A stretch of 64,000 nucleotides of DNA from Marsupella aquatica (taxonomy: Eukaryota > Plantae > Marchantiophyta). Positions 23,302-57,144 of this stretch are shown one piece after another (the stretch's first letter is position 1; every line of letters starts with the position of its first letter). Under the pieces are notes generated by a model, which did not search any database, was not told where the DNA came from, and was given only the letters and a program-made list of their open reading frames with translations. The position numbers and the translations under genes are program-made. The stretch is taken from positions 19,727,869 to 19,791,868 of the forward strand of contig OZ316892.1 of NCBI GenBank assembly GCA_973895155.1. The letters are read 5' to 3'.

Positions 23302-23303
23302 AG

Positions 23304-25810: not shown

Positions 25811-25820
25811 CAATAAATGG

Positions 25821-28952: not shown

Positions 28953-29008
28953 ATATGTTACTTAGTTACGTATTGTATATCACCTGACTCATTGTGTGAA
29001 CTGGAGTC

Positions 29009-29018
29009 AAGGTGGAGA
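29009..29018 (+). other. Polypurine tract
   Basis: AAGGTGGAGA immediately before the 3' LTR. Confidence 0.75.
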
Positions 29019-29019
29019 T

Positions 29020-31893: not shown

Positions 31894-32005
31894 TCTGCAA
31901 ACATAAAAATATTGAATCCGAATGGTTAGTCATTGGAACAGTCTTGACCAAAGACCATTTGAAGTCAACTAAGTCCTTGAAATCAAATACCCCGTCTGTC
32001 ACCCT

Positions 32006-33613: not shown

Positions 33614-34300
33614 TGCATTCTTTGGTACCTGCCCTCCTATGAAAAAATCCAGGACAATTTCCTCCCTCGAAGAAAATGCATGAATAAAACTCTACAGGAT
33701 GCGACTGGGCTTAATATTCAATGTGAATGGCCGTCCAGTTGTCAATTTGAAAGGAACAAGGCCTTCAAGTCGTGAGATCAATGTGTCCCTTTTTTTCTCC
33801 TGCATATCTTCCTTCAAAATATCAGAATAATCCTCTCGACTTGGCTTGATTGTCTCCTCCAGGTCGGACTCCTCCAACACAAAGTGACCGGTAAAATCCT
33901 TGAAATGCTTTTCCCAATCAGGAACCCGATCTTGGGAGACGCCAAGGAAAAGAACCATGTCCGCATTGCCTCTCATGTGTTGCAAAGGAGCATTAACCAA
34001 ATAACTCATGAACGAACCATATTCAAGGTGCGCATTATAGTTCTCCGGGAGATCTCGAATAGCTTCAATTATTCTTGCAAGAATAATACCAGGACAAACA
34101 AAAAAAACAGCTGTTACCAGATCATTTGTTGGGATATTCACGACGATCTTCAAGAAGTTCAAGATTTCGGACTGCGTCCAAACCGGTTTTCCAGTATGGG
34201 TCAAATCAACAATCGCTAGAGATGCCAATATTGACTCGCAACTAGCCGAATCAAAAGGAGGATCAGCAGATGCGAGCAGATTTCCAGTATAGAATATTCA
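33560..34300 (-). pseudogene. Degenerate beta-class N6/N4 DNA methyltransferase-like domain (outer element cargo)
   Basis: Reading through in-frame stops at 34298 and 33692 gives IFYTGNLL...SLAIVDLTH...KPSRIL*SFIHAFSSREEIVLDFFIGG...ALMLERECFSF, which resembles KP..L...I..FS..GD.VLDPF.G.G....A..LGR. Confidence 0.55.
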
Positions 34301-35044
34301 GTAAGGATCCATCCTTGCGCGGAGATGGACGCCAAACCTCTTTTGATGAATATTTCTCAACCTATTTTTCAGTGGCTCCGGCATCTCTGCTTTTAATGAC
34401 ACCTTCACAAGGCTCTTGAAATATCCAGTGTCCACCATTGCACAACAACGATCCAATTCCTCATCTGTGAAATTATATTGCTGAACTACATCACCCCAAG
34501 TTGATCCTTGCGAGAAAACCCCTTCGTACTTCTCCCGATAAAATTGAAGTATTGCCCCCTTAAGTTTGTCAGTATACTTTGCTTGTCTTGCCAATTCTGA
34601 CATGGCGGGAAGATCAGTCAAAGCATGTTTCTTTTTCATCAAAAGCGCCTCCCCCAAATTCAGTTTGTGGAGGATTTCCAAGATGTTGGATTCTACGGCA
34701 CCCTCAAAAACCCGGAATGTTGTCCCTGTCAACTGTTTTGCTTCTTTCAATTTTCCAATCATTTGTCCGGTTGAATCCAAAAGATTACCCTTGAGCCAAT
34801 TATTGCAAACCTCTCTCCATAAAGAGTAGAGCTTCTCGGGAGCAAACAAAATCCAATTGTACTCGCTGATGCTATTCACCTTTAACGTAACTTTCGCAAG
34901 TGTTTCATACTCCTGGGAGGAAAGACCAAACAACTCAAAGTTAGTCAGCTCAAAGTTTTGAATCCCAAAATACTGGAAAGGCTCTACACGACTCTCGCGT
35001 AGAAAGGAGAGAAGGACAAAGTGTCTGAATTTTGTTCACAACTC

Positions 35045-35600
35045 TCATGGAGAACCAACCTGAAATTCTGGAGATTTCCGACCCGATGGAAGTGGACGAG
35101 CTGGTCGCCCCATATCATTGTATTGCATTCTTGCATGTTTCACTTGGTCAATAAATGGAGATGAAAACCGATGTGCCTCCGCCTGAAGGTGGTTCGCGTG
35201 TGAAATTTCCACAAGAACTTTCACCGGAGTTGACCCTTTGAGAATTTGCGCTCGACGATATTTGAGCAAATTGGCTGTTTGCATGAGAGATGGTTGGGTC
35301 TTTGAACTCCGGATAATTTTCTTGGCGGCCATTGTGGAATGTTGACCACTGATGGCAAAGAACTTGAATTCCGCAAGCTTCTTGGTGTCAATATCCTTTC
35401 CCGCAAGGTCAATTAAACTCGGTACTCCGTCGATCATCTTGTAAGGAACCAAATCTGCAGGTAAAGGTTCTTGCCCTGCATTTGTCATCATCAGTTGCGC
35501 AAGATGGTTGACATGCTCCTCATTGAGGAGTCTCTCATTCATCTTTGCAGGAGGGGGATGGATGTTTTCAACCGGGACAATAAAAAAATTTGGATATCCC
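35045..35600 (-). pseudogene. ParB/sulfiredoxin-like domain (outer element cargo)
   Basis: ERLLNEEHVNHLAQLM...PADLVP...FFAISGQHSTMAAKKI...YRRAQIL matches the ParB/Srx pattern (R...V..L..S...I.DG.HR..A). Confidence 0.6.
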
Positions 35601-38568
35601 GAAACAATACCAAGACTTATTCAACTCCAATGTTTTTTCTGCAGTCTCCAGACGAGCACGGTCGACAACTAGCTTCGCGGAACTAGGGTTCTCGTCAATA
35701 TCCACATCTTCCTTATTTTTCTTTGCTTTCTTGGGCTTGCGAACGACAGCTTGAGAGGTGATGACAACCTTCTTCTCAACGTTTGGGGCCTTCTTCTCCA
35801 CGGCTCTGACCATGGGAGTTTTCACAACAATTTCAGCCGACTCTGTGGTCATCCCTTTCGCTTAGGAGGCTTTGCCCTTGATTCCACAACTACTGATTCA
35901 ACATCAAATTTTGCTTTTTTCTTTCCCTTTGGTGAAGGATCTTTTACAACTCCCTTTCGCTTCAGCGTCCTGATCTCCGGTTCGACCTTTTCAACTTTCT
36001 TCTTGACCGACGCAGATTTCTGTCCAACCCAAGACTTTTGAGACGGTTTCTCCTCCTGAGGTTTTGCTGGTGAAGCGACTTTCTTTGCATTGCTTGATTT
36101 TTGTATTCTGTCCTCGATCCCTTGCACTTCCTCGACAACTTGAATTCTCTTTTGAGAAGATGTTGCCTTTTCTTGTTTATCAACCGGAGATACATTTTTT
36201 CCACCTTTCACTTGAGGCACGACTTCGCGCTGGTTAGAAACAAGAACTCTCTTTCGAGATGGTTTCTTGTCTTCTTTTTGTTCTTCCCGTTGAACCTTCT
36301 TGCGGCCTGTTTTTGCCGCAGGCGGCTCATCTGCTTGATCAACAACTTTCACTCTCTTCCGAGGTAGTTTAGCTTCTTCTTTTATTTTCTCAAAATCAAC
36401 CTTCTTCCGGCCTAGTTTCCCTGATGGTGATTTTTCGTCCATTGCTTTTTTCTTCCCACTGGGTGTGGATGACTCTGACACAACACCAGCTTTCCCCTTC
36501 CTGGGCGAAACTCCCTTTGAAGTCTTTGCGTATCGCTTCTCTGTTGGAGGCTTTGCTGGGGGGATGACCTCATTTTGTTGAATTTCCCCACTCTTGACAT
36601 CATCGTTAATTGGTTCAACTCCACCTTCTAAACTTGTTGACTCTGACTCATTCTCTGACCCCGCCCGATTCTGAAAAGTCTTCTTGCTCTCTTCTTGGAC
36701 ACTTCCCTCCTCTCCGTCATCCTCATTTTTGGACTCATAGACTGATATCGTTTCATGGGACTTGCTCTCTCCAGAGGCGGACGAGTCATCGTTGGAGGAG
36801 TCATCCTCGTCCTTTCCCTCCCCATCATCATTGTCAATCTCTTTTCCACCAACATCTTTCTTCTTTGGGCGTACCAAGTCTTGGATTATTGGATGCCCTC
36901 GAATCCATTCCTCCACCTTTGTCTCACTGAAGTGTTTCATGAACACAACATTTGGAGAAATAGTCATCTTTCTCCTCCAGTCATCGTCTGGGATCTTCAT
37001 CCGCATTATTTGATCCACCTCTCGTGTCCGAGAGATAAAATATTCCGACTGCTTCATGACATAGGAGACCCGTCCAAGCCCCATAATTATTTCATCAGCC
37101 GTAAAGACCCGATCAGGTGAGAGCCATCTATCCGCCAAAGGATCAAAGAAACCGCATGAGACAACATTTGTGTCCTGGTTGTAAGGTTCAAGACAATGTG
37201 CTGAGCAAAACCCATGAAGTGGAGCAACCATCTGCTTGAAATTCCAAGCACTCTCAGACTCCAATGTCAGCAAAAGAGATGGGTTGTCCTTTGGGGACGC
37301 AAATCTTGTACAGTCTGCAAGAGTGCCAAAACTCACAAAGTTTCTTCGTCCATTTTCTGTTTTAACTCCCCTCACAATCAAACGGTAGTTGCCTTTGACT
37401 GGTTGCAATTCAAAAGACCATGAATTCACAGTCGCCAAAATATTCTCAAGTTTTGCGACCGTTGGAGTTTCAATCCGAAGCCTGTCAAAACGGAAATAAA
37501 CAGAGCAAACTCCTAGAAGACAAGGAGAAATATGTCAAACATCTGCACGACACTCGCGTAGAAAATAAAGTGAGCTGACAAACTGTTGCTTCATTATAAA
37601 CAAAATGATGTGAAAACATCCTTTACAAAATGGCCTCTTTGGCGTGTAAATGGTCCGGCAAAAAATGACTATCAGAACTTTGGAGATAGTCTTATGAGCC
37701 ATTTGAGCTCATCATGATTCGGAGTCAAAACAATGTCTAGATTTAAGAAACAATCCAATCCTCTGGAAACATAAGAGTTCCCTAACTCAAAGTATGCGCA
37801 CACATGTGGCCATGAAGGCAACAATTTTTCTTTTCCAATTCAATCCATCGCACTTTGGTATCCAATTGTCTTTCCCTCTCTTGGCCATCAGCCAGCTCCT
37901 GTCGCAAGTCATGAACTTGACGATCTTGAAACTTCTCCATCTCAAGAGAAGCTTTCATGGACTTTGCCGCTACGTCGCAAGTAATCAAATGCTGGATCTG
38001 TGCCCATCGATACTTTGCAAACATCTGCTCCCGTTTGTATTCCATTGCTTCCTTTTCATCCTCCAACGCTTTTTGGAGAATGGAATTCTCCATCAAACTC
38101 ATATCAAATGCATAAATACTTTTTTGTAACAATCCCTCAATCTTCTCAAAATTGTCCTTGCGATGAGCGCCTTCCTCTAGAAAAGTTGAACGAACAAAGT
38201 TACATGAACAATGTTTTGATTCCATATGGTACATATGAACGAGGATTCTACACGACAGTCGCATAGAAAACATGAGTTTCTACACGACAGTCGCGTCGAA
38301 ATCCATTATCTCCAAGATTGGAGAATCGGTTCTACGCGAGACTCGCGTAGAACTAAACAGGAAATTCTAAATTTTGACATAACGGCTCTCAAATAGAGAC
38401 TATGGGTCGATGAAAGAGACCCATTCTACACGACTCTCGTGTAGAGTAGACTCAAGTTTACCACAATCCATTGAAAATAGAGAAATTTAGGTCAGAATTA
38501 CCTTTGAGCTTCCTCAATGCAGCGAGAGCAAGTAATCCGGCGTCATTTTCTGCCAAAGAAGTCGTCAT
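35568..38568 (-). pseudogene. N-terminal exons of the outer cargo gene (coiled coil, globular region, long K/E/D low-complexity linker)
   Basis: Putative ATG at 38568. The GT-AG intron from ~38501 to ~38178 joins in frame to the coiled-coil ORF 37782-38273. An acceptor near 37481 leads into the 529-aa ORF. Frameshift near 35850. Confidence 0.5.
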
Positions 38569-39390
38569 TCCCTTCGCACGTGCGAACTCCTCCATGATAA
38601 TGTCAAGGACCGACTAGTTGAGCGAAAACAAATAGAAAACACAAATGATCCAAGGTCCGAGGTCCTTTTATACTCCAAGACGAGCATGAAAGAGCGTATC
38701 GTCCGAGGGGAGCGTGAAAGAGCATATCGTCCGAAGCGAGCGTGAAATGGCGTGAAACAATCTGAGGGCCAAGCGTGAGAGAGAGAGAGCGTGAGAGAAA
38801 GAGAGAGCAAGAGAGAAAGAGAGAGAGCAAGAGAGAAAGAGAGAGCAAGAGAGAAAGAGAGAGAGAGCGTGATTGAGAGAGTTAGACAATGAGAGTGACA
38901 GCGAGCTGGTCGGAAAGCAACATATATCGGCCCCTTCCGCGTGGAATACTGTCAAACAATGATTGCGGTTGCTACCCGGCCGCCAAACCTGATACTCGGG
39001 ACGTGTCACTAACATGGCGAACCACCACCCACCGCCAAACCAATCTGCATTTATGGAAATGACTGCTCACCACACACCACGCCGCCACAAAAAAGTACTA
39101 CACGACAATCTGGTAGAGTTGAATGTCTGAAATTCTTGCACCCCCACTCACTATATAACATGACAGACCACTTTGTGCAAGTCATTTTTTGAGACCTGAC
39201 TCATTTGTGCCTTCAGTCCGAGGTGGGACTGTCGTTAAAGCGTGCTCAGTTGTTTCAGGTACTGCATTGGTACAGTTTCTCGTACAGTTTTTCTCCTGTC
39301 ATTTTCAATTTTGTTTTAGTGATTGTGTCAGTATGTGAATGCATGTGCTTGAGTCTTTCCCATTGGGATGTGGTTTAACTGTATATTTAG

Positions 39391-40095
39391 TAGTAATCTC
39401 TATTGAATTTTGGACTTTTGATTTGCTACACGAGTCTAGTGTTGTTCCCCTGGTCTATCTAAATACAACATTCAATACAAAGTTCCTCAGATAACAAGAA
39501 TACTCATTTCAGAATATCCATCTCTCTATAGAAGTTTTAAGAGCCTACGAGTGTGTATTCAGTAGTAATCTCTATTGAATTTTGGACTTTTGATTGTCTA
39601 CACGAGCCTCGTGTTGTTCCCTTCGTCTATGCAAATACAACGTTCAATAGGAAGTTCCTATAAGAAGAATACTCATTTCAAAATATTCATCTCTATATAG
39701 AAGGTTTAAGAGCCTACTAGTTTGGATTCAGTCGTAAACTGTATTGAATATAGGACTTTGGATTGTCTACACGAGCCTCGTGTACGTTGTTCCCCTCGTC
39801 TATCCAAATACAACGTTCAATAGAAAGTTCCTCTAAGAAGAATACTCATTTCAAAATATGCATATCTGTATAGAAGGTTTAAGAGCCTACTAGTGTGGAT
39901 TCAGTCGTAATCTCTATTGAATATTGGAGTTTTGGTTGTCTACACAAGTCTCATGTTGTTCCCCTCGTCTAAGATACAATAGAATTTTCTATTTAATGAA
40001 AGAACCTTCAACTTTGTCGATGATTGTCTCCATTGCTTGTTCTGTGATATTTGCTTAGATTAGAGTTAGAGATTTTCACATGAGCCTCGTGTAGG
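39391..40095. repeat. ~172-bp tandem repeat (about 3.5 copies), each unit carrying the outer-element palindrome
   Basis: Units start at ~39391, 39564, 39733 and 39905 (TAGTAATCTCTATTGAATTTTGGACTTTTG...CTACACGAGCCTCGTGT). Confidence 0.85.
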
Positions 40096-40143: not shown

Positions 40144-41160
40144 ATGGCTTCAAGAACGCAGCTTCTACCTGGAGAAGTCGTTCACCTGCTTATCAATGAA
40201 CAACCAGTTGCTGGTGGAAAGGTTTTTTGTGTTCTACCTTCCGACACCTGCCACTCTGTGTTGCTTGGAGCAAAACGGATAAGTGTGGCGGTGGACAATG
40301 CTTTCTTTCACCTTGAACAGCTGCCGTATCCACATGCTGGAGCTGATCTAGTAGGAGAGTCGGTGAACTCCATTGTTTTGTGGGATCGGCAAGATGTCCG
40401 CCATGCAAATGACATGAATCTTGGAGGTCAAATAGAGTCAGCTTATGTCATTGATGACCCAGTTGACAATATTCAAGGTAATTCTGAATCAGCCATCGGA
40501 CTGGAGGGGACATAGGTTTTTGCGGAGGATTTGAAAGATCGTAGCACATGGTTCAAGAAGTTTGCCCTTCTCTATGCGGACGACGGAGAAACCTTGCTCG
40601 CAAGAGGTTGCATCATAAACCCACATCCTCTCGCGTCCATTAACAACGAGCGAGTTGGGGAAGATCATGTTGGTGTGAATATTTTGAGTCTAGCTATTGA
40701 AGCTGGCTTGGGAAAAGTTCTGTTCCCTCAATTTGTTGACAGATCACCATGCACAGTTTGATGGCCAATCAACAAAACTAGGATTGAGCCTAGAATGGAA
40801 TGTCTGAGTGATCTTTTAGATTGGAATGATGGTAACGATGAGGGAGTTAGAATTCTCTCATATATCAAGCCAAAAAGGGGCTATAACAATCAACGAAGAA
40901 ATCCTCAATCTTGATTCAAACAAGAAGGAGAGAAAACAACTCGAGAAAAGACGCAATCAAAAGATGTCTCGAGTGTCCATAGATACTCTTTATCGGGTTG
41001 ATTGTTGCTCACAGAGTTGTTGTCGACGACAACTCCGTGAGACCGTCACTGACATTAGGGCCCGCATTAGGGAAGAGTACTATGGTCTATCTCATGTTGA
41101 GCAACATACTTACATGCTCAATCATCTTCACTGTCGTGACGATGAAACCATCGCCTCAGG
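40144..41160 (+). pseudogene. 5' part of the outer transposase (two Tnp1/DUF8039-like repeats, then a Cys cluster)
   Basis: MASRTQLLPGEVVHLLINEQPVAGGKV...LPYP...IVLWD, a second similar repeat, then DCCSQSCC...EEYYGLSHVEQHTYML. In-frame stops at 40513 and 40759, plus a frameshift. Cut at the TSD. Confidence 0.65.
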
Positions 41161-41642
41161 GGGTATAACCACCGTGCTAGCAAATAGTAAATAGATATTC
41201 TCATACGAGCCAATTTTGCCTCGTACAAGAAATTTTTTGTCTCGTACGAGTAAACAAGTTCCTCGTATGAGCATATCTATTTACTCGTACGAGTTTCTGT
41301 TTTCTTGTATGAGTTTCTATTTTCTTGTATGAGTATTTTTTTTTCTTGTATGCATTTTAGTTTCTTCTCTTCACGGTATGTAGCGTCCATATATGCAATA
41401 ATTGTGTGGACAATATTATGGTGGGTCCCACCATTGTACAACATTAGAGGAAATTTCTCAACGATTTCACACAAGGACTCCAATATATTGCCACAAAATA
41501 TGAAGTCGAAACAAAGTCATACAATACTAGCGCCCGACGCTAGTATAGTATTATACAAAAAAACAACACTTTAAGAACTCACACTTCTGCCCATTAGAAA
41601 AGACAAACTACAATTGTAGCTGTTCAACGATCAAGCAACAGT

Positions 41643-44600
41643 CTACGTTCTCGTTCCCAACTGCCTATCAAGTATGTAACGGACTTCTCCCAACGTTAGA
41701 ATTGGCTGGCTACATAATGTTGATTCGAGCACATCCAGTTTGAACACATTCTTGAACACCCAATACACATGTTTGCAAGGCATGTAAGGCTTCCGATAAG
41801 TATGTCGACGGTAGAAATCCTCGCAAGAGCAACATGGGAAACAACATATATGAACCCAATAAGAGGCGACTGATCTCTCATGTTCATGGGTCCGGATACA
41901 AAATTGTTTCCCTGACGCATTTCCACTCGTGATCACTCTCTCTCCAATGACGCTCATCACTTCTTTTTCAGAGGCTTCAATTCTCTTCAAATGTGTTTGG
42001 GTAAGATGCACTCTTTGCAAGCATTTTTTCCCGTTCCTTGAAGCGTACCTCACAGATGGGTCAGTTAGGTTTATCCTCTCCAGGAAAAGATTGACATCAA
42101 TCTGTAACGCAGAAGGCAACGGTGCTTCGATTTCATCTCCACAGCCTTCGGAGAGAATAAGTCCTTGTTCTTTCAAAAATTGAATCTCTGCTCCAAAAAG
42201 ATTGGTCCCTTTGGCAATTGGGAGATGTGAAGGAACATTGGGAATGTTCGAGACTCCTCTCCTTGTTGTGCTTCGGTGACAGTGGTTGTTGGGGCAAAAC
42301 CATATCTGATCGTTATAAGGTTGCCCCTAAACATTCTACATCCTCTCACGGAAATTGCAACAACACCATCTGGATTCGGAAGACCAACCTTCTTTACTCG
42401 ATTTTGACATTCATCACGACTACCTCCCCGTCCAAGGGTTCTGTTACACACTGGACCCGCACCCCGTTTTGAGGTCCGACGCAACTGCCAGGCACCGGGA
42501 GGTACTTCACTTTCCATTGGGGAAACTGAATGACAATATGCAGTCTCGACAGGTGTTGCAGGCGTCACTGGTGGGACAGAGGATCTCGTTGCTCGACGCG
42601 TAGGTGTGTCAATGACCACAACTTCCTCAGAAGCATCGCTTTCTGACAAATTATGGACCGCATCAATTCCACCGGCTGAAGGCGTAGAAGGCATTTTCTC
42701 AAAATCAGTGGAATGCAGGTTTCTCCTTTTCAAACCTTTTGTATTTGGTGAAGTAACAAGGATGGTATCATGCCTGTGCGAGTCTTCTGCCGAGACGTTC
42801 CCAGTTGCATGTCCTTTTCGTTTCACCGATTGAGTTACAACATCACCATTCAATGGAACGCTTCTTTCCAAATCAAACTCAGCAGCGTTCGACAGGAGGA
42901 GATTGGTGGCTTCCTCAAAGAGACGCGGTGACCCCGCCAGGTCCGCCGATCTGAAGGCAAGCTCAAAAATAGTTGGGCCAGTTCCTTTGCTCAATCCCCT
43001 TTTGTATGCAGTATAAGCAGCAATTTGAGCAACCGCTCTATTTTGGTCCGTTTTACATCCTTCAAATAGACCAACCTTTTTTTTTCTGTTGCCATGCTTT
43101 CATTCCAGCATGCCTAGATTCCGAACCAGTACAATTAGGAATCATCCCAGCCTCTTCGGCACTCTTGCTTTGAAACGTTGCACGCAAGGGTTTAGTACAT
43201 GTAAGAAATTGCACACAAAAGTGGCAACACAATGGAAATAACAGTAGCGCCAGACGCTAATAAACTGATGATGATATTTCCATGTAAAGAACCGTTTAAC
43301 ACAGAATAAAGGTAGTCCTTACATCACTCATAGTCCAAATGGATTATTAGCGCTCGGCGCTACTATTGCAGATAAGGAACCCTTCTATCTCACACATGCT
43401 TCACTAGCGCCGAGCGCTATTAATGGGAACATGCATCCTATAGAAGTGTATAACTCACCAGTCTTATGAAGTTCCCCCATTGTCTCCATCGGACAACCCA
43501 CCAAGACAGCCACCCTTGCAGCATCCGAAGTTTGCCTGAGTGACAATTGCCAGACCTCCACCAGTCATCGATTTCCCTAGAGATTCGATATGCTTTCAAG
43601 AAAGTTGGCGCGTTCTGAAGACGATCCCACATCTCCTTGTGCTCTCCGTGCTTTCCATCTTTTACACCTTCTCGGGAATGACAATGAAAAGATTGGAAAA
43701 AATGAAAGGCATCTGATCTTTCTCGCTCTGGGTCGGGTACACCGTCAAAGAACACGTTTTGAACAGCATTCCAACCAGCCTGAGCATTGTCCGCCATGAA
43801 TCCCCAAATTGTAACATCCTGTAAACCATTTTCATCGGCAACCTCTAACATCAAACGCCAGGCTCTCTCCAGAGATTTTGCATCTTTGGCCTTTAGCTCA
43901 CAAGTGAATATGGTGCAAAGTGCCCGGTAATGATGATCATATACATGGGCACTGAAAGTAAGCCAATCTGCCGTGCTTCGATGCATCACGTCAAAACTTA
44001 CCCATGAACCCTCTAACGACCCACCAGGTTTCATTCTTTGGAGCAGGTCCAGACCACTACCGTCATCTTTTACGGTCATTTTAAAGATATGAGCACTCTC
44101 ATCCCGATAGCCTTGACCAGGGAGCAAGAACCTATGAAGAAAAGGTAGTCGGATACACTTTTGCATCCTCACAAGAAATTCCAGTTCCCCTTTCCCCTTC
44201 TGATCTTGACGGACACTCCTTAACACGGATGCAAACTTCTGAGGAGATGCGACGACCATCAGGGACTCCCAGATTTCCTTCTCTTCTTCAAGAGAGATTT
44301 CTTCAACAGAGGCCTCGCAAAATGTATTCGTCAGTGTCTCAGTCGTAGAGTTTTTAATCCCTGCTTGGGATGCCATGGGGTTTGCAGTGAATCCCTTCTC
44401 CAGATGAGACTTTGCAACCTTTTCTGCCTCCCTCAAAAAGACCCGTCGACTGGGATGATTGTGAAATCCCATAAGAACAGCTAGTCGCGACATGTGGGCC
44501 AAAGACTTAACGTCAACTTTTGCAGATGGATACATGTAGAACATTAGAGCAGGGCAGGCCTCAACGCACATCAGAGGTTCGGAGCAATGGTGACAAACAA

Positions 44601-45498
44601 CTCCACCTTCGAAGATCAATTCCCCAACTCGGAATGGGCCCGAAAGTTTTGGGGTTCTTGCCCACATCTCATTATTTCGAAAGTTGTTGTCTTTCCACCA
44701 CGGACAAGCATTATTTTGACACTGCAGCGATCCCGTACACTGGACTTTCCCGAAATCCCACATTTTCTTCGGAAGAACATTTGAAGACGTTTTCACAATC
44801 CGAGTCCAATAATAACAATCCTTACCACGATCCATATCTTTCAAACGTTCACCTTTTGCGTTCACACAGTCTACCGGGGGTAACTCAAAAACCACATTCC
44901 CATTGTAAGATGTGGGAAGACTAGGCACTACGTGATGAACAAAATCACTCCCCCTTATAAACCGAGACAATTCACTATGACCTTTGGATTTCAAGATTGT
45001 ATCCATTGCACTCTGCCGGTACACAGTCAAAGGCACAATCATTTCTCGATCCGCATTAGACTCCTTTTTAACCTCGGATGGGTAAACTGGAATCTTCTCT
45101 CCGAGAGTAGTTGTCGCTTGCTTATCATCTCCAGAACTTTCCGAGAGTTTGATGACATCGAGTTCAGCCACTGTGGGAGGACGAGTATAGGAGGCCCCAG
45201 AATCTCTCAAAACAAAAACCTCATATTCTTTCTGAGCCTCCAGAGTCCAATATCTTAGACCATGAACAACATCGTAGAAAAGTGGAGTCTCCCCCAAACA
45301 AACCGACACTAACGGCGAGATCGCTAAAATAGACTCCTTGGCGACATCAAATCTCACTCCCAAATATTCCTCTAAAACACGCTTTGATTCAGATGATTCG
45401 AGGACGGGAATTGTGATTACATCCAGAGTGTCCTTCCTTGTGACAACGATATTTTGAGCCATGGCTTCAAAAGAGGGATATGCATTTGCCCCACGCAA
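41643..45498 (-). pseudogene. MULE-type transposase: GCM/WRKY-like Zn domain, DDE core, C-terminal SWIM finger; spliced and frameshifted
   Basis: CTGSLQCQNNACP...CHHC...GFHNHP; WVSFDVMH (D1), FMADNAQ (D2), DAFH at the CxxH position. After an intron (~43455-43175) comes CTGSESRHA (E). SWIM: CSCEDF...PCKHVYWV. Confidence 0.8.
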
Positions 45499-46184
45499 AA
45501 TGAAATATGTTTATCATGAGATTCGAGTACGAGAAGTAAACGTTCCATTCTCATTATAGAGTCGTTATAGATTGGACGCACTCCATCAATGACGTTTTGT
45601 CGTCTTACCAACGGCAGGATTCGGGTTCATAGTTACTAGCACCTGGCGCTACCTCTATGTGTAAAACACCCTTGGATGAGGACTACGAATGCCAATAATA
45701 ATAGCGTCTGGCGCTACCTCTGGGTGCAAACATTCTTGGGTGAGGAGTACGAAGGCAATAAATAATAGCGCCTGGCGCTACCTATTTCAATGGACTTGAA
45801 AACATTCAATGGAAGGATAAGTACGACAACGCAATACAGTACGAGTCATTAAGTTGGCACGCTTTAAGATCTCCACTGGATCTTCGCGAATCCGATCCGT
45901 CCGGGTCCAAATGTGCCAGAGAGGAAGCGTCCACGAAAGTTATATCAGAGGGTCCTCTTCGAAGTGGGCAGCCAGGACCAAGTGCAAACTCTCCTTATAT
46001 CTAGTCGTTCTCCTCCGATGTCCTCATTGTCAAGCCATTCTTTACTGAGTCGCAGTTGTGGCTCATCTTTCGGGCGCGTGGTTCCCGTTCTCGCATTCGG
46101 GCCCAGTTGTTCTTTTTGGCTTTCGTGCGCGTTCTTGTTCTCCTTCTCGTCCTCGTTTCTCATTCTCGTCCTAGTTCACTTTCA

Positions 46185-49100
46185 ATGGCACCTCCACAGG
46201 GAAAGGCAAAGGAGGAGGCACTTGTCCCGAGTGACACCGACCGGGAGACCCCCGCATCAAATAGCTTACCGCCTCGGGACGAGAGGATGACGGTTCCAAT
46301 CTCGAAGAAGGGGAAACTCATCTCAAAGACGAAGAATGCCCCAACTATGGGACGCAGCAAAGGATCCAGTCGGCCAAATGCGAGCGGCCCAACTTCTGTT
46401 CCCGCTAGGGATATCGCCCATGCTTCAGTCGGCCGTCCAAGAGCCGACACTATCTGCACGGGAGTCTCCGTATCTTCTTCATCCACTGAGAGTGATCGTT
46501 CTTCGAGCGGGGACTCATCACCGAGCAGGCAAGGATTTGCGTGGTATGGATCGAGCGACTCGAATGACGACTCTGATGCGTACAAGCCAAGTTGGTGGGA
46601 AGACTGATTTCCCGGTGTCAGAGCGTCTCGTTTGAGTGCTGGAGAGACTTGGAGGATCCATCGAGGTTGATAGGATCTAATTCCACTCGTTTTTTTCCGT
46701 TACAAAACACATACCGTTCCTTCCTCGTATGTCGGATTTCTAGTGTATTGTAACATTTTGTATATGAACGGCACAGCCGTTCATTTTTACCCCGGTGTCA
46801 ATGCTTTTGAATTCAGAAGACCAAGCTTTAATTTTGGGTTCTACTCCCGTGTTTGCATTGTATTTCTGAATGCGAAACTGATCTATTTCTTTGAAATGGC
46901 CATAAACACTCGTTTGCTGTCAATGTTTTTACTAGCGTTTGGCGCTATTATGACAAACAAAGTGTCCATAACACTGTCGTGACATTTCTTATCTCTAAAG
47001 TGTTTTTGATAGCGTTGGGCGCTACTAATGAAAGGAATCACAAGTCAGACCCGTTTGGAGTTATTTTTACTTTTATTTCAACAAAGTCTGTTCAATTGAT
47101 GTGCATTTTAATAGCGCCAGGCGCTATTGTAATTCATTGGAATATTCGTTGAATGAATGGGTTCATGTGGTCATGTTTGTTGTCATTGGACTCCTATTTC
47201 ATCATTTATTTGGATACTAGCGCCAAGCGCTACTAAAGTTGGCTTGTTGACTCCTGCACAAAATTGGAAAATTTATAGACACTTGTGTTGATAGTACTGT
47301 CCGAAGCTACATTAAGACGGTTTTTCAGATACATTTGAAAGTATGTTGTATAATAGCGCCTGGCGCTATCCACAACTATCGACATTGATGTGGTTCCAAC
47401 GGTCACTTTCCAACGGTAATATTATAGTAGATTGAGGTTCACGGAACCCTTTTTGCTTTTGTCTGGGATGAAAGTCCAATCGGAGAATGCCATCTGTACT
47501 TGGGATTGTTGTAATCGAATGGCTGGTTCCAATGTATCGGTGTCTTAATACGAGGTGGAGATCGCTCGTTTGGGATAATTTAGTCCGTCTACGCGCTCAG
47601 ACCTTGGACTATATGAGTTTGTCAAGTGCATATGTGCGTCCTTTATTGGTCCCGTACATTTTGAGACGTGATCGTGACAAGAACTGCACGGCGCGTCCGG
47701 CAGTGCCTTTGGTCGAGTCGCTCTCCATGGCAACTTTTGGCTGGGTGATACGAGAATGGGGGAGGCTGATGGTGGTCATTTTGAGTCCTCTCAGTCTTCG
47801 TTCGCTGGTTCAGTATACACCCGTCGTGTCACTCGATCGACTGCATCCCTGTCGACTTCCGAAGCTGAATCTGCACAGCCCTTCCCGAGGTCGAGGAGAG
47901 GGAGAATGGACCCTAAGGACGTCTCCATGGGTGAAGTCAGTGACATAGGCTTATCGATAGACGAGGTAATATCAAAGCACGCATTGTCGTTCGGGAAGGA
48001 TTTTTGAGGATTCGATAAGGAGCCACCTCGAATTCCTCTTTGTAGATTGCTCCCCATGGAGGTTGTTCGAACCTTACAGAAAGAAAGTGCATCGATCGAG
48101 AAGTTGAAAGAATCATTCCGTGTCACCGGGTACAACTCGCGCATTGGGATGCCTTTCTACGTTCAGCCTGCGAATGCCGATGGGGTTTCTCAGATATGCA
48201 CCAGCAAGATCCGGGACTCTTGGGATCCAATTTGGGTCGTAGAAAATGACAAGTTTGAGGAAGAGTGTGATGCGGACCCAACATTCCATATTCTAAAAGA
48301 TAAAATGTTTTGTGTGTTTGACAGAAATCATCGATTGTACTCATGGTCAATCCTCACGAGGGAGAATCCGAACAACTTGAAGTATCATCCTCGTGTGATT
48401 TGCGTCATTTTCAATGGTGACAGAGGTTCGCTAGTTGAGCTCGAGGCGGCAATGCACACCATGAACCAATAAGTTCTATTTGTTAACTGTTGTTACCCCT
48501 GTCATTCATTTTGGACCAAACATGCTTTGCGAAAGTGTTCATTCCCCAATTTTTGCTAGCGCCGAGTGCTACTAATTCCTTTTCATTGCATCCAGGCTTG
48601 GACAAGCAGTCGTCGAGCCTTCCTGGATTCTTGACGCGGACAGAATTTCCCGAATTTTGTCGCGTGATCTTGATCACTATAAGCCACTCATCGACAGCGT
48701 GAACATGGCAAAGTTTGAGGCGATCCGAAAGAAGACGAGAAAGGGGTCTTGGTTTACACATAAAATGCCACAGGATGCTCTCATCTACATTCTGTGTGTG
48801 GACAAAATCAAGTCTTACTCAAATCAATTTAAGTCTGATATGGCTTTAGCCAAAGCTCAAGGGGCTTCTTGGTCAGAAAAGGAGACCACAAAGAGGCATG
48901 AGGCAATGATGAAGGAGGCGACCAAAGATTGGTCGATCAAAGTGACGAAGATCACCCCTTTACTTCATCCGGATTTTGGAGATTATTTGGGAACCTATGC
49001 TGAGATGTATCCCGTAACTGAGAAGAACAAACAGGAGAAGAAGCCAGACACAGTTGTATGCACAATGGATCGAGCCAGGTTGTTTACTGCTGTTTCATAC

Positions 49101-51497
49101 CTGGATCCAAAATTGAGGTGCACCCTTCTAGTAGCCCACTGCACTCCCGAGATTTGGAAACAGTTTTTCCATCCTGCAAGTGTCAACGACGAGCCTGTGA
49201 AGCAGTGGTGCCATACATGGCATACTTGGAATTCTGTGGAGGGAATTGCAACTGGAATGCTTCACACTTCTTTCAAACAGATTTCTGACCGGATGCCGGC
49301 TGACCGTCTCACAAAGTCTGGGTGTGAGTCAATGGAGGCCATGCTTAAGATCATTCTAGATGAATTCAGAAACTTTGGGGATCTTGTCAAGGCAAAATTC
49401 TTCAACAACTTGTGGCCTTCCAAATATGCGGACAAGGAAGATTACACAGAGCGGAACCGGAAGAGAGCCAAACGATATCTATACCGGTTTTACATGTGGA
49501 TGGAGCTTAGATCTCCTGACACTCTGTGGGCATACCCGGCTGCATTTCAGAAATGGGTGTCTATCGAAGAGGGAGACGCTCTTGCCGACCTGTATTCGAT
49601 GTACCCAGCGGAGGGAAAGTTTCCACCACGTTCATTGTCGGAGTGGGAGAGACTTTGTTGTCCGTGGTACCTCGACACAGACAAATGGGATTTACCGTTT
49701 GACGAAGCTGAGAAGGATGCCTTCATGAAGTTGCAGAAGTCCCAGATCCCTGCCAACTATGTGTCTGCAATGAAGCAAGGTCTCCAGTCTGATGTTGACG
49801 AATCTGCATCTGAGTTACAGAAGAATTGTGAGTCTCTTGTCATGCACGTTGACCGAAGCCGTAAGCCAAGAGCAAAGGCGAAGAATGAGTCGGCTGCACC
49901 AAGTGACTCCACAAGGTCCTTCAAGAAAAGTGAGTAGTCTAAGCGCTTTTTGGTTACTTGTTGGCGTTGCTTATGCAGGAGTTTCATTTGGAAATTCCTT
50001 TGATTAATAGCGCCTGGCGCTAGTCTGAAAGGTTGGACTCATTCAAGTTTCTGTGCCTAACAGGAGGTCCCGGCTGCCGAAGGGAAGAATGATGCAACTC
50101 CTCAGGCATCGGAGGCAAACACTGGAGCTCAAGAAACCCCGGATCAAGGGACCCCGGATGGTGCTGGCAAATCCATTGTCCCTCTTGACGCAACTAGCAC
50201 GAAGAAAAATAAAAAGAGAGGCGCCGGTGAGGATAGAGCAGCATCATCTACTCGAGACGTTATTTCCTGTGGACTCCAGAGAGATGTCGGGAATTTTAAG
50301 CGAAGGTGTTCTAGACACTGTTTTGTGGAGTCCAATTTAAACGAATTTTACGATTCGGTATTTAACAAGGGGATGAAGCCCATGTGGGTTACTAAAGTTG
50401 AGGCCTGGGGAAAGGAATTGGTAAAGTCAGGAGACAGAGAGAAGGGAGTAATGCATGGCGGAAAAGAGAGGGGCTTTGGTGTGGATGCTGGTTTCATCTA
50501 CATTCCCACTGGATTAAAACCAACACTTCTTGATCGGAAGATTCCCAAGTGGAACCTTCAGGATTACACTATTCCCAGCTCTTTCTTCCGAGCCATGGAG
50601 CCGTTCCTTGCAGACGATGGCCTACTTGCAATTTTACACAGAGGAGACTATGATCAGGTATCTGAAGTGATTGCGGCTTGCCAGGATTCTAAGTGTTTCC
50701 AGTGTATTTCAACCCACCATGTGGTCATGACTACACCAATGTATAGGCCCCGATCTGATACTCAGGTAACAATTCCTCTTGCACATACTAGCGCCCGGCG
50801 CTACTATCAGCATTCGCAATATCTACAATTCACTTATCTTTCGTAAGGATGAATGGTTGACTAGCGCCAAGCGCTAATATATGTGTATGTTTTCGTATAC
50901 TGCCTTCATTGGGAAACTGTGTTGCAGATATTCACACTTACTCTTAATATATTTTGCCGCATTTTGACAAAGGGAAGGGTCCCGAAAGACCCCAAGTTCC
51001 GGCCACTATCGAATGAAGAAGACCCTTCCGTCACTAACATTATTGGGTTTTCGTTGCCGCAACATGACCCGACTCCTGAGCTCCAATTTGCAGGAAATTC
51101 ACGATTGCCTGTGGGTTTCATGCAAACTATTTTGGAATTGGTGACTCTTCCTGGAGATATCGTTATGGACTGGACAGTAGGTTCCGGTAGTACGTTTGTG
51201 GCTGGAGATTATTCTGGTCGCTTTGTTGTTGGGCTGGAAAATCGGCCAGAGTTTGTTGATACTTCCGGTAAGGTCTTCCTTGATCTTTTACAGAACAAAG
51301 AAGTGGTTGCACCAACTCCTCCTAAGAAGATTCCTGGAAGTAAGAAGCAGGACAGGCTCCGTGCTATTCTAAATTTTGATTCGGAAGACGAGAATGAGGG
51401 TGGCAATGCTTCTCAGCAATCTAAAGATGATGAGGTGTCGAAGAATGTGGTGGACCTTGGATCTGGAGATGAGGACAGTGAAGAGTCAGAAGAGTAA
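46185..51497 (+). pseudogene. Spliced ParB/Srx-like plus beta-class N6/N4 DNA methyltransferase fusion gene (MULE cargo)
   Basis: ParB-like IPLCRLLPMEVVR...IEKLKESF...CVFDRNHRLYSW (48020-48470). MTase-like VDAGFIYIPTG...FLADDGLLAILH, then LPVGFMQTILELVTLPGDIVMDWTVGSGSTFVAGDYSGRFVVGLE. Introns at ~46670-47430, ~48470-48594, ~49931-50062 and 50766-50927. Stops at 46605 and 48005. Confidence 0.75.
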
Positions 51498-52271
51498 TTT
51501 TCTTTAGCTTTCTTTCTCTCATTGTATACTTTTTTCCAAAAAACTCCTCTACTCCCTTTTGTCTAGAAAATTCGCCCGATTTCCCGACTTCGACTAAAGA
51601 ACTCCAGTTCAAATTCTCAGGTCAGAGTAGAATCTTTGGAGGCGTTTTCAACTTTGAAGGAACGTCTCTAGGAACGTTGTACAGACCCCGGAGAAGCCAT
51701 TTGTTCTCCCCTCTTATGCTGAAAAGGCGGCACGACGGGCAGATTCAGTCAGGACGCTTACTTGGGAGAGTAAGGGTCTTAGACTCAGGAGAGGCTCAGA
51801 TAGAAAGTTTGTGCAGAATCACTTCATAGATGATATTGCAAAATCCAAGTATGTGGACGACGAAGCAGAGTCCACTGATAGATCAGAAAGTAGCGGTTCT
51901 GAATCGGGCTCAGAGTCGAGTGGTGGTTGTGGATCTGGTCTTTAGTTTTCCTTGTTTTATTTACCCGTTTATGGAGAACGACAACACTCAATAAGAACGT
52001 CGTGACGTGTCGGATTGGAGTAGCGCCCGACGCTATTACTGTAGCCGGTAGTTCAAAGAGGTTTTTATTTGGTTGTTTTCCTTATAGCGCCCGGCACTAG
52101 TATAAATGTACTCAATGGCCGCTTCACATCCAATATATGTGACAATATTTTCATACCCTTTGGTGTCTTTTTTGGGTGCACATTTGCTGGTATGAGTTTT
52201 GCTGTTTGCTGTTTACTGTTTGTTGTTTGTTGTTTGCTATTTGCTGTCACGGAGAGATCCCCCGCCTCAGG

Positions 52272-54576
52272 CATGATTGTATTCAAGGGAAGCAAGATCT
52301 GCAAGGAAGCTTTCTGGAATATTAATGGATTTTCTCTAGGAACATTTTACACAATGTATTCACGATACATGGAGGGGGCAAAAGTTGGTGTTCATGGGAA
52401 TGAAGGGACCATCAAGACCAAAGACTACGTTGTGTTGTTCACAGAATCAATTCAAAGTATCCTGCATAAATGTGCAGAACCAATGCCACATCTTCACAAA
52501 ATTGGTGTTTCAGGCAAGCAGGAAGTTGTTTTCAGGGTTCCAATAAGTTTCGGGAGAAAAGATGTTTTTGAAGAGGCTTGCAAGCTTAACAAAAACCTGG
52601 GTATTCACTCGACCTCTCTCCCAACCTTCTACAAGCTTTTGGATAAATATTTCCCCAATTTCCAATTCCAAGATCGGAGCAACTTTGCAAAATGCGATCT
52701 CTACACGACCATTAAAGAAACACTTCGGGGGGAGAAACGGGTGGATAAGATTTTAGAAATCAAGGCAAAGTGCGAACGGCATATGTTGGAACAACAATCA
52801 CGCAGGAGTATGTACTATGCAGCAAAAATTGCGGCGGACCAAGAGCCCAAAAAATATTTGTCTATGATTCACGATAAAATGGATCAGGCCAAGACCGGAA
52901 TCCCTAAAATGACTTCTACACTCAAGAGCCAAGGAGGCAAATCAATCCCGCTACCAATGACGCTGACGGGGATGTTAACGCATGGATGGGAGCCTGGAAT
53001 TTATGCACATTTTGCCCTTTCTGGTTTGTGGGCAAGCGATCCTGATTTTACAATCTCTTCGCTTGCAAAGTTATTTCGTGATCTCAAATCATTTGTGGGA
53101 GATAAGACCGACGATCTAGCTCTCAACACCTCTGACGTCATAGATCCAATCTTTGTATCCCTCTTGGATCGGCGTGCCTTTGAGGTAGGATACCTCGAAA
53201 CCAAAAAGATCTCTCTCGCTCACTTCGTAGGGCTTGGTGACTCACACGAGAGTCCCGTAGAGCCTTGAACATTGCTACCCTTCAAGGCGCTTCCTCGAAA
53301 CCTCCACCTTCAACTTGATAACTCGGGAAAGGATTACAAGAACCAGACATTTCTGGCTTTCTGTAGCGAGCTTGTTCTAAGAGGAGTGTTTGAGTCAGTA
53401 ACTCTTTCCTTTTTGATGGTGGGGCACACTCATGAGGATGTGGATGCCTTCTTCTCTAGAGTCGGGATAAGGATCTACAATTGAGAGCTTACCACATTTT
53501 TTGGTTTGATGGCGGAGGTTTGGGAGTGCGAGAAGAAACATCCGGTTCCAAGGTTCATCCGCGAAGTTGCATCTTACAAAGCTTATGTAGGACCATTTGT
53601 CAAAAGGATCCAGGGTCAATCAGCACCTGTTCAATTCTTGTTATCAATGAAGGAGAATGTCCCAGTCTACCAATATCGAGAGAAAATTGATACGCCTTGG
53701 CTACCGAAAAAGGGTCAAACAATTTGGTTGTTTGACTTAGAGAGAAACCAATACAAATTTCCAATTGGAAGTCCTTATTCCAAGCGGATGGAGTCTTCTC
53801 ACAAGCGAGCGAATCACATTTTGGAATACTTGATCCATTATATCTCATGGCTGAAGACTGCATGGAAGGATGTTACATCGGAGGGATATCGTCTCCGAAG
53901 TCCAGAGATTCAATACTGGGAAAACATTGTTTTTGTGTTTCAGGACACACTTTGCTCTCCTTCGCTAGCAGGGGTAGATTATCCATTACTTGATGGATTC
54001 TGGCCTCGAACGAACCATGGAACTGGGTATCGTCAGGATGGTCAGAACGTGGATACCAACCCAAGCGAAGACAATGGGGTGATGCATAATCTGGAAAGAG
54101 AGCTTCAAGAAGATGAAGAAGAGAGGCAAACAATCTTTGTCTGACACCCTTCTGAGCGTGAGAGGTCAAGATTTAGTCCTCTAGAAGATATTAAAAAGAA
54201 TACATTTGTTATTATTCGACCCACCGATGAATTTGAAACCAGAATTCTGCAACGATTTTGGCTTGCAAAAGCAATCGATTGTGTCGTAAGAGATCCCGAC
54301 GATTCGCATGTTGGAGAGTTCCAAGTTGAATGGTGGCGCCCTCTTAATCGCAAGAGTTTGGCAACCGAATCAGAAAGATATTGGGACTACTTTAATTCAA
54401 AGCAAACGTGGGAAAGGGATCCCAATTACCTCATTCCCCCAGTCACAAATGATTGGATCCTAGCAACTTCAACCATCACCGGATGGACATCAAAAGCAAA
54501 AGCAAAGGTAAAAGTTCCAGCAAGAGTTTTGGAAAGTGTGAAGGTTTACATTACAGAAACGATTGAAGAGAACTAA
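52272..54576 (+). pseudogene. 3' part of the outer transposase (Sola1/DUF7869-like RNase H-fold DDD core and C-terminal beta domain)
   Basis: ICKEAFWNING...HGNEG...FAKCD...MIHDKMDQAKTGIP...LHLQLDNSGKDYKN...SFLMVGHTHEDVDAFFS. In-frame stops at 53266 and 54142; frameshift near 53480. Confidence 0.75.
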
Positions 54577-54620
54577 AATCCTTTCTCGACGCAAGACTCG
54601 CGTGGAAGACACTTGGTGAT

Positions 54621-55350
54621 GCACGGCACGTCCTAATTATGTCGGGTTCAGGATTGTGGGAGAACAATAGGCGAGGTTTGAGCTGGTGTCACTTTCCGCA
54701 TGAGGCTCGTGTAGGCCGGATTACTTAGCTCGAGGATCATTTTTTGGAAAGTGAAAGGTGTGTACTTGTACTCAATGTCATATTCACTACAATGGCGCGC
54801 ATGTCAACCTTTGGCTCGTGTCCATTGTGGCCACAATGATGGTTTGGTGCCGGATCACAAGATTTGGGTGGGATGAGCTCAATTTCCTCCGTTATTGAGG
54901 TTAAATTGACAGGTGCTTTTTTATCATAATTGTGCTACACGAGGCTCGCGTAGGATGTCATAATCAACTTATGACTTGCAAAACCCGGATCTTATCACAG
55001 ACACCCATATCACACGGCATGTACTAATTGTCGGGTTGAGGACTGTGGGAGAACAATAGGCGAGGTTGGAGTTGGTTGGTTCCATTCACTTTCCGCACGA
55101 GGCTCGTGTAGGCCAAACTACTCAGCTCTAGGATCATTATGACCTTCGGAAAGTGAAAGGTGTGTACTTGTACTGAATGTCACTTTCACTGCAATGATGC
55201 GCATGTCGACCTATGGCTCGGGTCCATTGTGGCCACAATGATGGTGTGGTGTCGGGTCACGGGTTTTAGTATCATAATTGTACCATACGTGGCTGGCGTA
55301 GGATGTCATAATGAACTTATGACTTGCAAATCCCGGATCTCATCACACAT
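54621..55350. repeat. Two-copy tandem duplication (~390 and ~340 bp) near the presumed right end of the outer element
   Basis: CACGGCAYGT.CTAATT..GTCGGGTT...CCCGGATCT.ATCACA starts at ~54621 and ~55012. Each copy holds two palindromes. Confidence 0.8.
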
Positions 55351-57144
55351 ACCTTTATTCGAGAGGCTTGTTTCTCTCCTTCAAGTTATGCTTTGTGATG
55401 AACTTCTGGCTCAGTCTCCAACATCTCTCTGATCAAATCTCCTTCTGATCAAATCTTCCTTTTCCAAATTGAGCGTTTGACAACCATTTTGGATCGTGGT
55501 GATTTTCCTTAACTTTCATAATGGCACCTGGGAGACAATTGAGGAGTTCTTTGGCATTACATACGGAGGAGAGTTCTAGAGCATTACACGCAGAGAATGC
55601 GAATGAGGAGCGGTCCAACTTCTCTGTGTGCCCGGAGCCATCCGATAGTTTCGACTCTAGAGTTGCTGCAAGAACAGAAACCATTCCTCCTCTTGGCAAC
55701 CAAACTGTGGTTAGTCATGACAAGACGAACGACCAGGCACCTGTTGCACATGAGGTGGAGGAGGAACAGAAAGAGCAAGAGAAGAAGCCGACAAAGGCCG
55801 TGGAGGAGGAACAAACGAGGATCCGTCGGGAGGAATGCATGTCGAAAGATGAGGCGTCGTTGGAAGAGGGAGCATTTGGCTAAGTATTACGGACCTTTGA
55901 AGAAGAAACGAAGCTCCGAGAGAAGTCTGAAGGAATGGGCAAGGGAAGAATTTCTAGATAGCGATAATGCGTACTCCGACAAGTGGATGCCATCATCCTA
56001 GAATGATTGAATGAGGCATTCTGGAGTCAGCTCTCGGGAGGTGTTTTGGAGCTGTTTTTTGTGCGGATGCGATCATCGCGTAGGAATTTGTTAGTTGATC
56101 GTGCATTGTGTTTAGGTCACTAGAAGAAAACCTGTGTTTTACTACTACAGGCCCTGCAACTACTTTGCCTAAATAACTCATACGTGGTGCCAACCACTAT
56201 TTTTTTAATGGGTTGTAATAATCTGCATTTTATTACTCTACTTAGAACTATGTTACCTTAATCACTGATTACAACTCTCTTTTTTGCCACTAAAACTTAA
56301 ATCACTTGAATTAGAGTTGTATATTACACAAATTTACAAATCACTACAATCCACCGTTCACTCCACCGTCGATGTTTACAACTCTATTTTCAACTAAGAT
56401 TTTACTACTGACCGAAACCACTACAAATACAAGTACCACCAATATTTGAATGGTAAAGGTGCTTTTTCAATCAACTCCCAATCAAGTGAAGCTTTTCCAA
56501 GTGATCTTAATTACTTGAAATAATGTCATTTGTGAGCACACCTTTTGTTACTGTAAATATCACCAATAGTGGAGTCACAAAAGAATTTTGGCAAAATTAT
56601 TTAAAATATTTTAGTGACAAGGAAATTCTTACAAACAACTTAAGATTGAGTGAATTAATTCTCAATGTACAAAATTTCTTTACATAAAGTCATTATTATC
56701 ACAAATTGTCTGACTACAAATATCACTAATATTAGAGTCCAATAAATATTATTTGATGCAACTTCAAACCAAGTGCCACATCCTCCTTAGTCCAAAATCA
56801 CTCTAAAGAATGTCATTCTCTTCGCACATTTTAGTGACTCCAAATACCACTAAGAGTAGAGTGTCAATGCAGGACCTTGCAAATGACTTGAAATAAAGTA
56901 GATCATTTTCCATTCTTAGAAATCACTATGAGTAATGTCATTCTTTAAATACATTTTGCCACTGCAAATGCCACCAACATTAGAGTGTCAAAACAGTTTT
57001 GATAAATGACTAAAAATTAAACAGATTATTTTGTGATGTCCAAAACCTCTCCCCATGGTGTCATTATCAACACACATTTTCAGTCACTATATGCATGCCG
57101 CCGGAATTATAGCGACAAATAATTTATTTTTTTTACAAATTGTA

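Follow-up and report, generated by a model that had tools for sequence, protein, structure and literature searches.

VANC, the cargo protein of VANDAL Mutator-like elements (MULEs), binds a motif that is specific to the family and lies in introns and spacers, and it demethylates the entire element (PMC5735166, PMC10398659). Cargo of a different kind has been proposed in algae. In Ectocarpus, the element Sola1-1_Ec32 has an accessory gene opposite its transposase that encodes a ParB-like N4/N6-methyltransferase, and this protein has been proposed to bind the element that encodes it and to modify that element (PMC12477816). In red algae, the PAG3 and PAG2 genes of Plavaka (EnSpm/CACTA) and the Mutator elements of Chondrus represent ParB-like cargo across superfamilies of transposable elements, again as an untested proposal (10.1101/2025.02.11.637652). 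Among ParB-family proteins, VirB is a clamp that loads at its site, slides, and counters silencing (PMC10770331). Here, we describe a MULE in 64,000 nucleotides of the genome of Marsupella aquatica (assembly GCA_973895155.1, contig OZ316892.1, positions 19,727,869 to 19,791,868 of the forward strand; hereafter, the window). Its cargo protein is predicted to be ParB-like, its noncoding DNA carries 18 copies of a 15-bp palindrome (motif 1), and it interrupts a CACTA-like host element with a ParB-like cargo and a palindrome of its own. Based on these sequence features, we propose with moderate confidence that motif 1 is a family-specific operator of the ParB-like cargo protein, probably with an anti-silencing role.

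Compared by architecture, the locus resembles Sola1-1_Ec32 in having an accessory gene opposite the transposase for a protein of about 1,100 to 1,200 amino acids with a ParB-like N terminus and an amino-methyltransferase domain, both predicted. It differs in that the elements are Mutator-like and CACTA-like rather than Sola, the genome is of land-plant rather than brown-algal type, the catalytic motif is non-canonical, and the palindromes are dispersed, whereas the available passages on Sola1-1_Ec32 describe no binding motif. With PAG3 and PAG2 the locus shares ParB-like cargo that appears to move among superfamilies, inverted repeats as proposed sites, and a cargo match to PF01555. In Plavaka, however, ParB is fused to a 2-oxoglutarate-dependent oxygenase, a separate SET fusion provides the methylase, and tandem repeats lie beside PAG3. 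Here, the sites are single dyads with unrelated flanks, present in each inferred intron and spacer. The resemblance to VANDAL elements consists of degenerate terminal inverted repeats (TIRs), a cargo protein, and a short family-specific motif, judged within the window, that is enriched in intronic, intergenic, and terminal noncoding DNA. VANC, by contrast, is DUF1985/MAIN-like and its motifs are 9-bp, same-orientation units in tandem repeats, while motif 1 is a dyad of 15 to 21 bp; neither the exons of the cargo nor 45 longer relatives gave a Pfam match to DUF1985. The function of VANC is proven, whereas anti-silencing is suggested here by analogy.

As in ParB/parS and VirB/virS, the protein, which is predicted here, is of ParB type and has the GxxR that forms Box II of ParB proteins (10.1101/2025.10.10.680097; PMC10770331). 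Unlike in ParB/parS, we found no ATPase family (the ParA partner) among the scanned open reading frames (ORFs) of the MULE, we identified no helix-turn-helix, and the setting is eukaryotic chromatin. Motif 1 also differs in sequence from the parS consensus. An initial sequence-only reading of the window had likened the palindrome to parS, and the comparison carries more weight now because the cargo is predicted to be ParB-like. In the literature searched, which did not cover subscription journals, we found no report of ParB-cargo transposons in land plants, and the algal papers alone were relevant. Judged from sequence, the locus represents a variant from land plants, with its sites dispersed and with built-in specificity control, and not a new category, because the class has already been proposed for algal transposons. 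The features on which the argument depends are as follows, in window coordinates and with strand where one applies.

41161 to 52262: MULE of 11,102 bp, a defective copy from a multi-subfamily family, delimited by target site duplication (TSD), TIR, and empty site
63193 to 64000: left end of another copy of the family, 95.6% identical by sequence comparison, with motif 1 at 63555
41646 to 45462, minus strand: Mutator-like transposase in two inferred exons, frameshifted, with, as read by eye, a Cys/His-rich N terminus, DDE-like residues, and a SWIM-like C terminus
41200 to 41333: left-subterminal array of seven CTCGTAYRAG-like 10-mers at 20- to 22-bp spacing, seen in the sequence
46186 to 51497, plus strand: cargo gene of about five exons, broken in the window copy, from ORFs, family comparison, and homologs
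about 48008 to 48469, plus strand: predicted ParB-like domain of the cargo, in exon 2
about 50480 to 51300, plus strand: methyltransferase-like (N6/N4) domain of the cargo, with a PF01555 match, motif IV Y[IL]PT, and the motif I region
41528 to 41542: motif copy 1, in the left noncoding region 3' of the transposase, in register in a diverged subfamily
43245 to 43419: motif copies 2 to 4 (43245, 43348, and 43405), in the inferred transposase intron (about 43190 to 43460)
45637 to 45780: motif copies 5 to 7 (45637, 45702, and 45766), between the divergent genes, with a tandem duplication of about 65 bp
46933 to 47368: motif copies 8 to 12 (46933, 47010, 47112, 47218, and 47354), in inferred cargo intron 1
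48557 to 48571: motif copy 13, in cargo intron 2 (48470 to 48595)
50008 to 50022: motif copy 14, in cargo intron 3 (49930 to 50063)
50789 to 50876: motif copies 15 and 16 (50789 and 50862), in cargo intron 4 (50766 to 50929)
52021 to 52099: motif copies 17 and 18 (52021 and 52085), 3' of the cargo, near the right end

All 18 copies that had been reported in the element, along with the one at 63555, were recovered in a scan of the 64-kb window with no more than two mismatches to TAGCGCCNGGCGCTA (5 perfect, 11 with one mismatch, and 3 with two). Elsewhere in the window there was a single site at three mismatches and none at two or fewer. A degenerate form, TAGCGYYNRRCGCTA, was found 19 times with up to one mismatch, compared to an expectation of 0.03, and none of 100 shuffles reached 19. 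Similarly, 200 dinucleotide shuffles of the MULE yielded no copies of motif 1. Nor does the motif occur at similar density in unrelated DNA, since there were no copies in the 52,091 bp outside both family copies. Within the element, the inferred coding DNA (about 7.57 of 11.1 kb) held 0 of the 18 copies (P ~ 1e-9), whereas under the inferred gene model all eight noncoding segments held between one and five, bearing out the claim that every inferred intron has a copy and exons have none. Even introns of 126 to 134 bp carried one; 6 of the 18 copies lay outside introns. The copies had also been placed in AT-rich introns far from the termini, which is correct in part. Most are intronic and lie 2 to 6 kb inside the element, but three are 163 to 367 bp from its ends, and cargo introns 2 to 4 are only mildly AT-rich (GC of 0.40 to 0.43 versus 0.454 for the element). 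Flanks were unrelated, as first described (median of 24 matches in 80), except for the pair at 45702 and 45766, which reflects local tandem duplication. The spacings of the copies showed no significant helical phasing (P = 0.06 and 0.24), and no family in an Rfam scan overlapped them.

In a symmetrized profile of motif 1, T-A-G was invariant at both ends and positions 4-5 and 11-12 were near-invariant, while positions 6-7 and 9-10 tolerated change and the center was free. TA-rich flanking positions lengthen the dyad to about 21 bp, approximately TAH-core-DTA, and exact 7-bp half-sites without a partner were absent from the MULE. Every deviation (16 of 16) was C>T or G>A, a stronger bias than the "nearly all" of the sequence-only reading. 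Each copy kept one intact half-site, to which we attach no weight, since only 3 copies carry two deviations. CpG is normally the most mutable site. Yet the outer CpG was intact in 33 of 36 half-sites even though every deviation was of the deamination type, and it was the CCNGG positions that took 13 of the 16 changes. Together with a non-canonical motif IV in the cargo (see below), these counts weaken the suggestion that the motif is a methylation target.

Comparison with four public sequencing runs, all as contigs, extended this pattern to the family. Most of the family carried the inner, pair-breaking G>A at 50798 in every one of the four runs, so changes inside the motif are tolerated and inherited and do not represent decay only; at 52096, the window copy departs by G>A from the family's perfect letter. 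In one run (X2), a contig from a diverged subfamily had, where copy 1 lies in the window, an 18-bp dyad without any mismatch. The adjoining spacers were equal in length to ours (33 and 18) but matched at 17/33 and 10/18 positions, as counted by eye; the pieces are taken to be one contig because two joints are equal in depth. In a second subfamily, whose intron 4 could not otherwise be aligned, at least the left half-site was retained, 22 bases from the start of that intron. At none of five boundary choices did repeats flanking the copies exceed 3 bp, and with neither TSDs of their own nor a conserved flank, the copies do not look like remnants of a tiny miniature inverted-repeat transposable element (MITE). 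These observations support the view that motif 1 is under selection and family-specific within the 64-kb window, and the retention of the dyad in diverged subfamilies while flanks drift strengthens the earlier proposal of a dimer-type site under selection.

A 9-bp TSD, CGCCTCAGG, at 41152 to 41160 and 52263 to 52271 falls within the 9 to 11 bp of MULEs, and the TIRs are degenerate, being imperfect, about 30 bp long, and starting with G. Two of the four runs contained the empty site, in which 41151 is joined exactly to 52263 with nine shared letters. Related pieces that were 80 to 100% alike were abundant in all four runs, indicating a family with multiple subfamilies, relative to which the window copy has frameshifts, stops, and indels. 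The cargo gene on the plus strand is head-to-head with the minus-strand transposase. The DDE- and SWIM-type motifs of the latter were recognized by eye, and there was no MULE or SWIM match in Pfam and no informative match in PDB. From its TSD, ends, and these motifs, we classify the transposase as Mutator-like. The subterminal 10-mer array recurs in the second family copy at 63236 to 63369, and the right end has one degenerate 10-mer (52187). These 10-mers are likely transposase sites and are better candidates for that role than motif 1. Host genes in the window match plant-type families.

The gene model of the cargo is supported for exons 2 to 5, which are colinear with a Riccia protein: exons 3, 4, and 5 align to it one after another, and the exon-2 domain is present in the representative of its cluster. 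The position of intron 2 was the same in three of three metagenome homologs (L001 to L003), with a following exon that was 30% identical in the one compared, and at intron 4, subfamilies align on either side but not inside. Intron 1 is the least secure of the inferred introns. In exon 4, 24 of the 31 family variants listed were synonymous, compared to 22% expected, showing purifying selection on the cargo at the level of sequence. As an aside, the intron of L003 that is homologous to cargo intron 2 contains a related dyad (positions 311 to 336) with 10-bp arms, which has the same outer TAGCG arm as motif 1 but a different inside; we record it as a lead only.

By prediction, the N-terminal domain of the cargo resembles ParB. 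A family of 482 clusters includes the exon-2 domain; among 10 long or top matches that were looked up, 5 came from Riccia sorocarpa and 4 from Adiantum, and both Riccia and Adiantum have full-length relatives of the cargo. Cargo relatives in these plants include KAL3677308.1, KAL3686416.1, and KAI5065344.1. Of 165 aligned relatives, which include 14 that cover the site incompletely, 117 contained the sequence (D/E)GNHR. Among the 151 relatives covering the Box II-like G..R, the G was present in 145, the H in 141, and the R in 126; the window copy reads DRNHR. Matches to hidden Markov models all fell below cutoff and were led by models of ParB type: TIGR03187 in 8 of 12 cargo homologs (E = 0.01 to 0.1), the ParB-like PHROG phrog_1033 in 3 of 9, and DUF1015 in 2 of 9 and, in another set, 1 of 40. 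In an atlas of protein clusters, the domain was assigned with a score of 0.95 to a cluster in which 11% of members have ParB_N, and the cargos of both elements matched one DUF3723 cluster. Two AlphaFold models were of low confidence (pLDDT of 41 to 45), and a Foldseek/VIA search, made with the host-cargo model only, returned generic helical matches. Because the profile matches are below cutoff and the models of low confidence, the ParB fold is treated as a prediction throughout.

Between this domain and the methyltransferase-like domain lies a middle domain, with a middle exon of 453 amino acids. The methyltransferase-like domain matches PF01555 at positions 163 to 219 (E = 5e-8) and has the S-adenosylmethionine (SAM) motif I region. 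Its motif IV, however, reads Y[IL]PT across the family, including the diverged subfamily, and D[LM]P[TS] in both alignable Riccia proteins. The catalytic form (S/D/N)PP(Y/F/W) is absent from the cargo family; canonically, the motif is SPPY or DPPY with its aromatic residue (PMC8885841). In this family the domain is likely a non-catalytic or non-canonical DNA- or SAM-binding module.

PDB sequence searches gave nothing useful, a long-protein search with cargo exon 3 gave no match although relatives at 25 to 27% identity exist, and neither an exon-3 search of metagenomes nor scans of prokaryote genomes and viral contigs for relatives gave a result. The paired-motif pattern had no matches in viral contigs and, among prokaryotes, two loci in a single Ilumatobacteraceae genome (L005 and L006, 3001 to 3076), where a 61-bp repeat contains a similar dyad. 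We rejected this repeat as a relative, as it shares nothing with the window except the motif. Separately, two fern relatives of the cargo domain (P0105, KAI5065344.1; and P0160) are annotated with NIF phosphatase or retrotransposon gag, which may represent fusions or annotation joins.

The strongest argument for pairing the cargo with its site, one absent from the sequence-only reading of motif 1, comes from the interrupted host element, in which a second ParB-like cargo accompanies a different palindrome (motif 2).

40960 to 54576 (40960 to 41160 and 52270 to 54576), plus strand: DUF7869 (CACTA/CMC-like) transposase of the host element, divided in two by the MULE, from family match
31148 to 37534, minus strand: host CACTA-like cargo region with a ParB-like domain (35048 to 35620), a methylase-like stretch, Ulp1 protease, and NIF phosphatase, from family matches
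32006 to 55301 (32006 to 40094 and 54696 to 55111): motif 2, CTACACGAGNCTCGTGTAG, 17 copies at four or fewer mismatches, in the host element

Motif 2 was confined to the host element (32006 to 40094 and 54587 to 55301), and at up to four mismatches it was absent from shuffles, from the MULE, and from the rest of the window. The two motifs were thus mutually exclusive, with 18 copies of motif 1 in the MULE and none in the host, and 17 copies of motif 2 in the host and none in the MULE. At up to five mismatches, motif 2 had 21 copies, of which 16 were noncoding and 5 were in ORF-like stretches; several had been multiplied by local duplications of 172 and 400 bp. The ParB-like domain of the host cargo matches the same ParB-like PHROG as the cargo of the MULE, and one fern relative of the latter is annotated as fused to NIF. 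The methylase-like stretch of the host cargo has DPPF, a weak motif I, and a PF01555 match at an E value of 0.21. In both elements, the observed-to-expected ratio of noncoding CpG was 0.84 to 0.86; the corresponding values were 0.53 at 1 to 19.8 kb and, for a young Copia element with identical long terminal repeats (LTRs), 0.61. This excess is weakly suggestive of reduced methylation of both elements.

Under the explanation that we favor, each element would encode a dimeric reader of its own dyad, with sites kept wherever coding constraint allows. Motif 1 would be the family-specific site retained in each inferred noncoding segment. A cargo dimer would load at the palindromes and would probably protect the element from silencing by the host, leaving it open to transcription. 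Our confidence varies among these steps. Binding of motif 1 by a dimer of the cargo is quite probable. An anti-silencing outcome, drawn by analogy with VANC, is plausible at slightly under even chances. A nucleoside triphosphate (NTP)-gated load-and-slide step, as in ParB, KorB, and VirB, is a more tentative analogy. The most general version, which we consider unlikely in full, holds that in seed-free land plants bacterial-style, NTP-gated ParB sliding clamps are exchangeable cargo of unrelated DNA transposons, each with its own parS-like palindrome, and spread from intronic sites over the element to evict silencing. Such clamps would constitute an anti-silencing system that evolved independently of VANC, and the two nested elements would embody an orthogonal protein-site code.

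Several observations weigh against our proposal. The ParB assignment consists of a motif and sub-cutoff matches, and the 453-amino-acid middle exon had no family match and no identified helix-turn-helix. None of the three metagenome homolog loci (40 to 51% identity, 1.2 kb each) carries motif 1. The two cargos could not be aligned with each other (hhalign probability of 0.2%; independent E value of 3.3 in a second-round profile search). Since the ends of the host element were not found in the window, the confinement of motif 2 partly reflects our own delimitation. Age or origin may account for the excess of CpG, motif specificity was assessed in the 64-kb window, and the effect could be either activation or self-repression.

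The alternative that survives best, though we regard it as improbable, is that the cargo binds motif 1 but writes a self mark (N4-methylcytosine or N6-methyladenine) or represses its own element. In its favor are the PF01555 match in the cargo, the DPPF in the host-element cargo, the self-modification proposed in the algal reports (PMC12477816; 10.1101/2025.02.11.637652), and the long-range expression control described for KorB-type ParBs (10.1101/2025.10.10.680097). The Y[IL]PT of the family and the D[LM]P[TS] of Riccia, without the aromatic residue of SPPY/DPPY, argue against it (PMC8885841).

Less probable still is that the N-terminal zinc domain of the transposase reads motif 1, for synapsis or autoregulation. 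Transposases bind short repeated sites and act as dimers, the TnpA sites of En/Spm offer a parallel, and three copies of motif 1 do lie within 370 bp of the element ends. However, the separate subterminal array with its 20- to 22-bp spacing already suits that role, most copies are intronic and deep inside the element, and the same layout occurs with two unrelated transposases, for which the common factor is the type of cargo. We consider it very unlikely that a dimeric host transcription factor acts through motif 1, as a captured site, to drive germ-line expression of the element. Homotypic clusters in noncoding DNA would suit enhancers, but the 52 kb beyond the family contained no copies, the adjoining elements use different dyads, and a copy is present in even the shortest introns. 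Hardly credible is a neutral relic (footprints of tiny MITEs, slippage products, or an RNA or single-stranded DNA hairpin tied to splicing), which is largely refuted by conservation between subfamilies: 45637 to 45780 is a product of tandem duplication, several motif-2 copies lie within the 172- and 400-bp duplications, and the right flank of the intron 2 copy is branch-point-like, but flanking repeats are short, dyads are conserved between diverged flanks, the distance to the right-hand splice boundary varies from 24 to 201 bp, a third of the copies are not intronic, and a pair-breaking change is the family majority at 50798.

The window contains other features besides the two elements. The Copia retrotransposon (23008 to 29313) has 294-bp LTRs that are 100% identical, marking a very recent insertion, and beside it (29388 to 29520) is a short fragment of bacterial-type small-subunit rRNA, of plastid or bacterial origin, above the Rfam threshold. 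At 29873 to 29993, a perfect 44-bp inverted repeat, whose arms lie 33 bp apart, may represent a hairpin or a very small LTR, and it is directly followed by sequence resembling a primer-binding site. The region from 56118 to 60110 begins with CACTAGAAGAAAA, a CACTA-type start, and continues with a tandem array of about 705 bp that is strongly depleted in CpG (0.41) and CWG (0.26).

So far, ParB-cargo transposons have been predicted only, in algae, and without a tested site. In the window, two candidate pairs of protein and site adjoin each other and their motifs are mutually exclusive, and annotated relatives in Riccia and Adiantum bring the system into reach of plant genetics. If our proposal is correct, transposons would recognize themselves in eukaryotic chromatin by means of a bacterial loading-and-sliding switch. 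VANC would no longer be the sole self-targeting anti-silencer, and orthogonal, site-addressed chromatin tools would come within reach.

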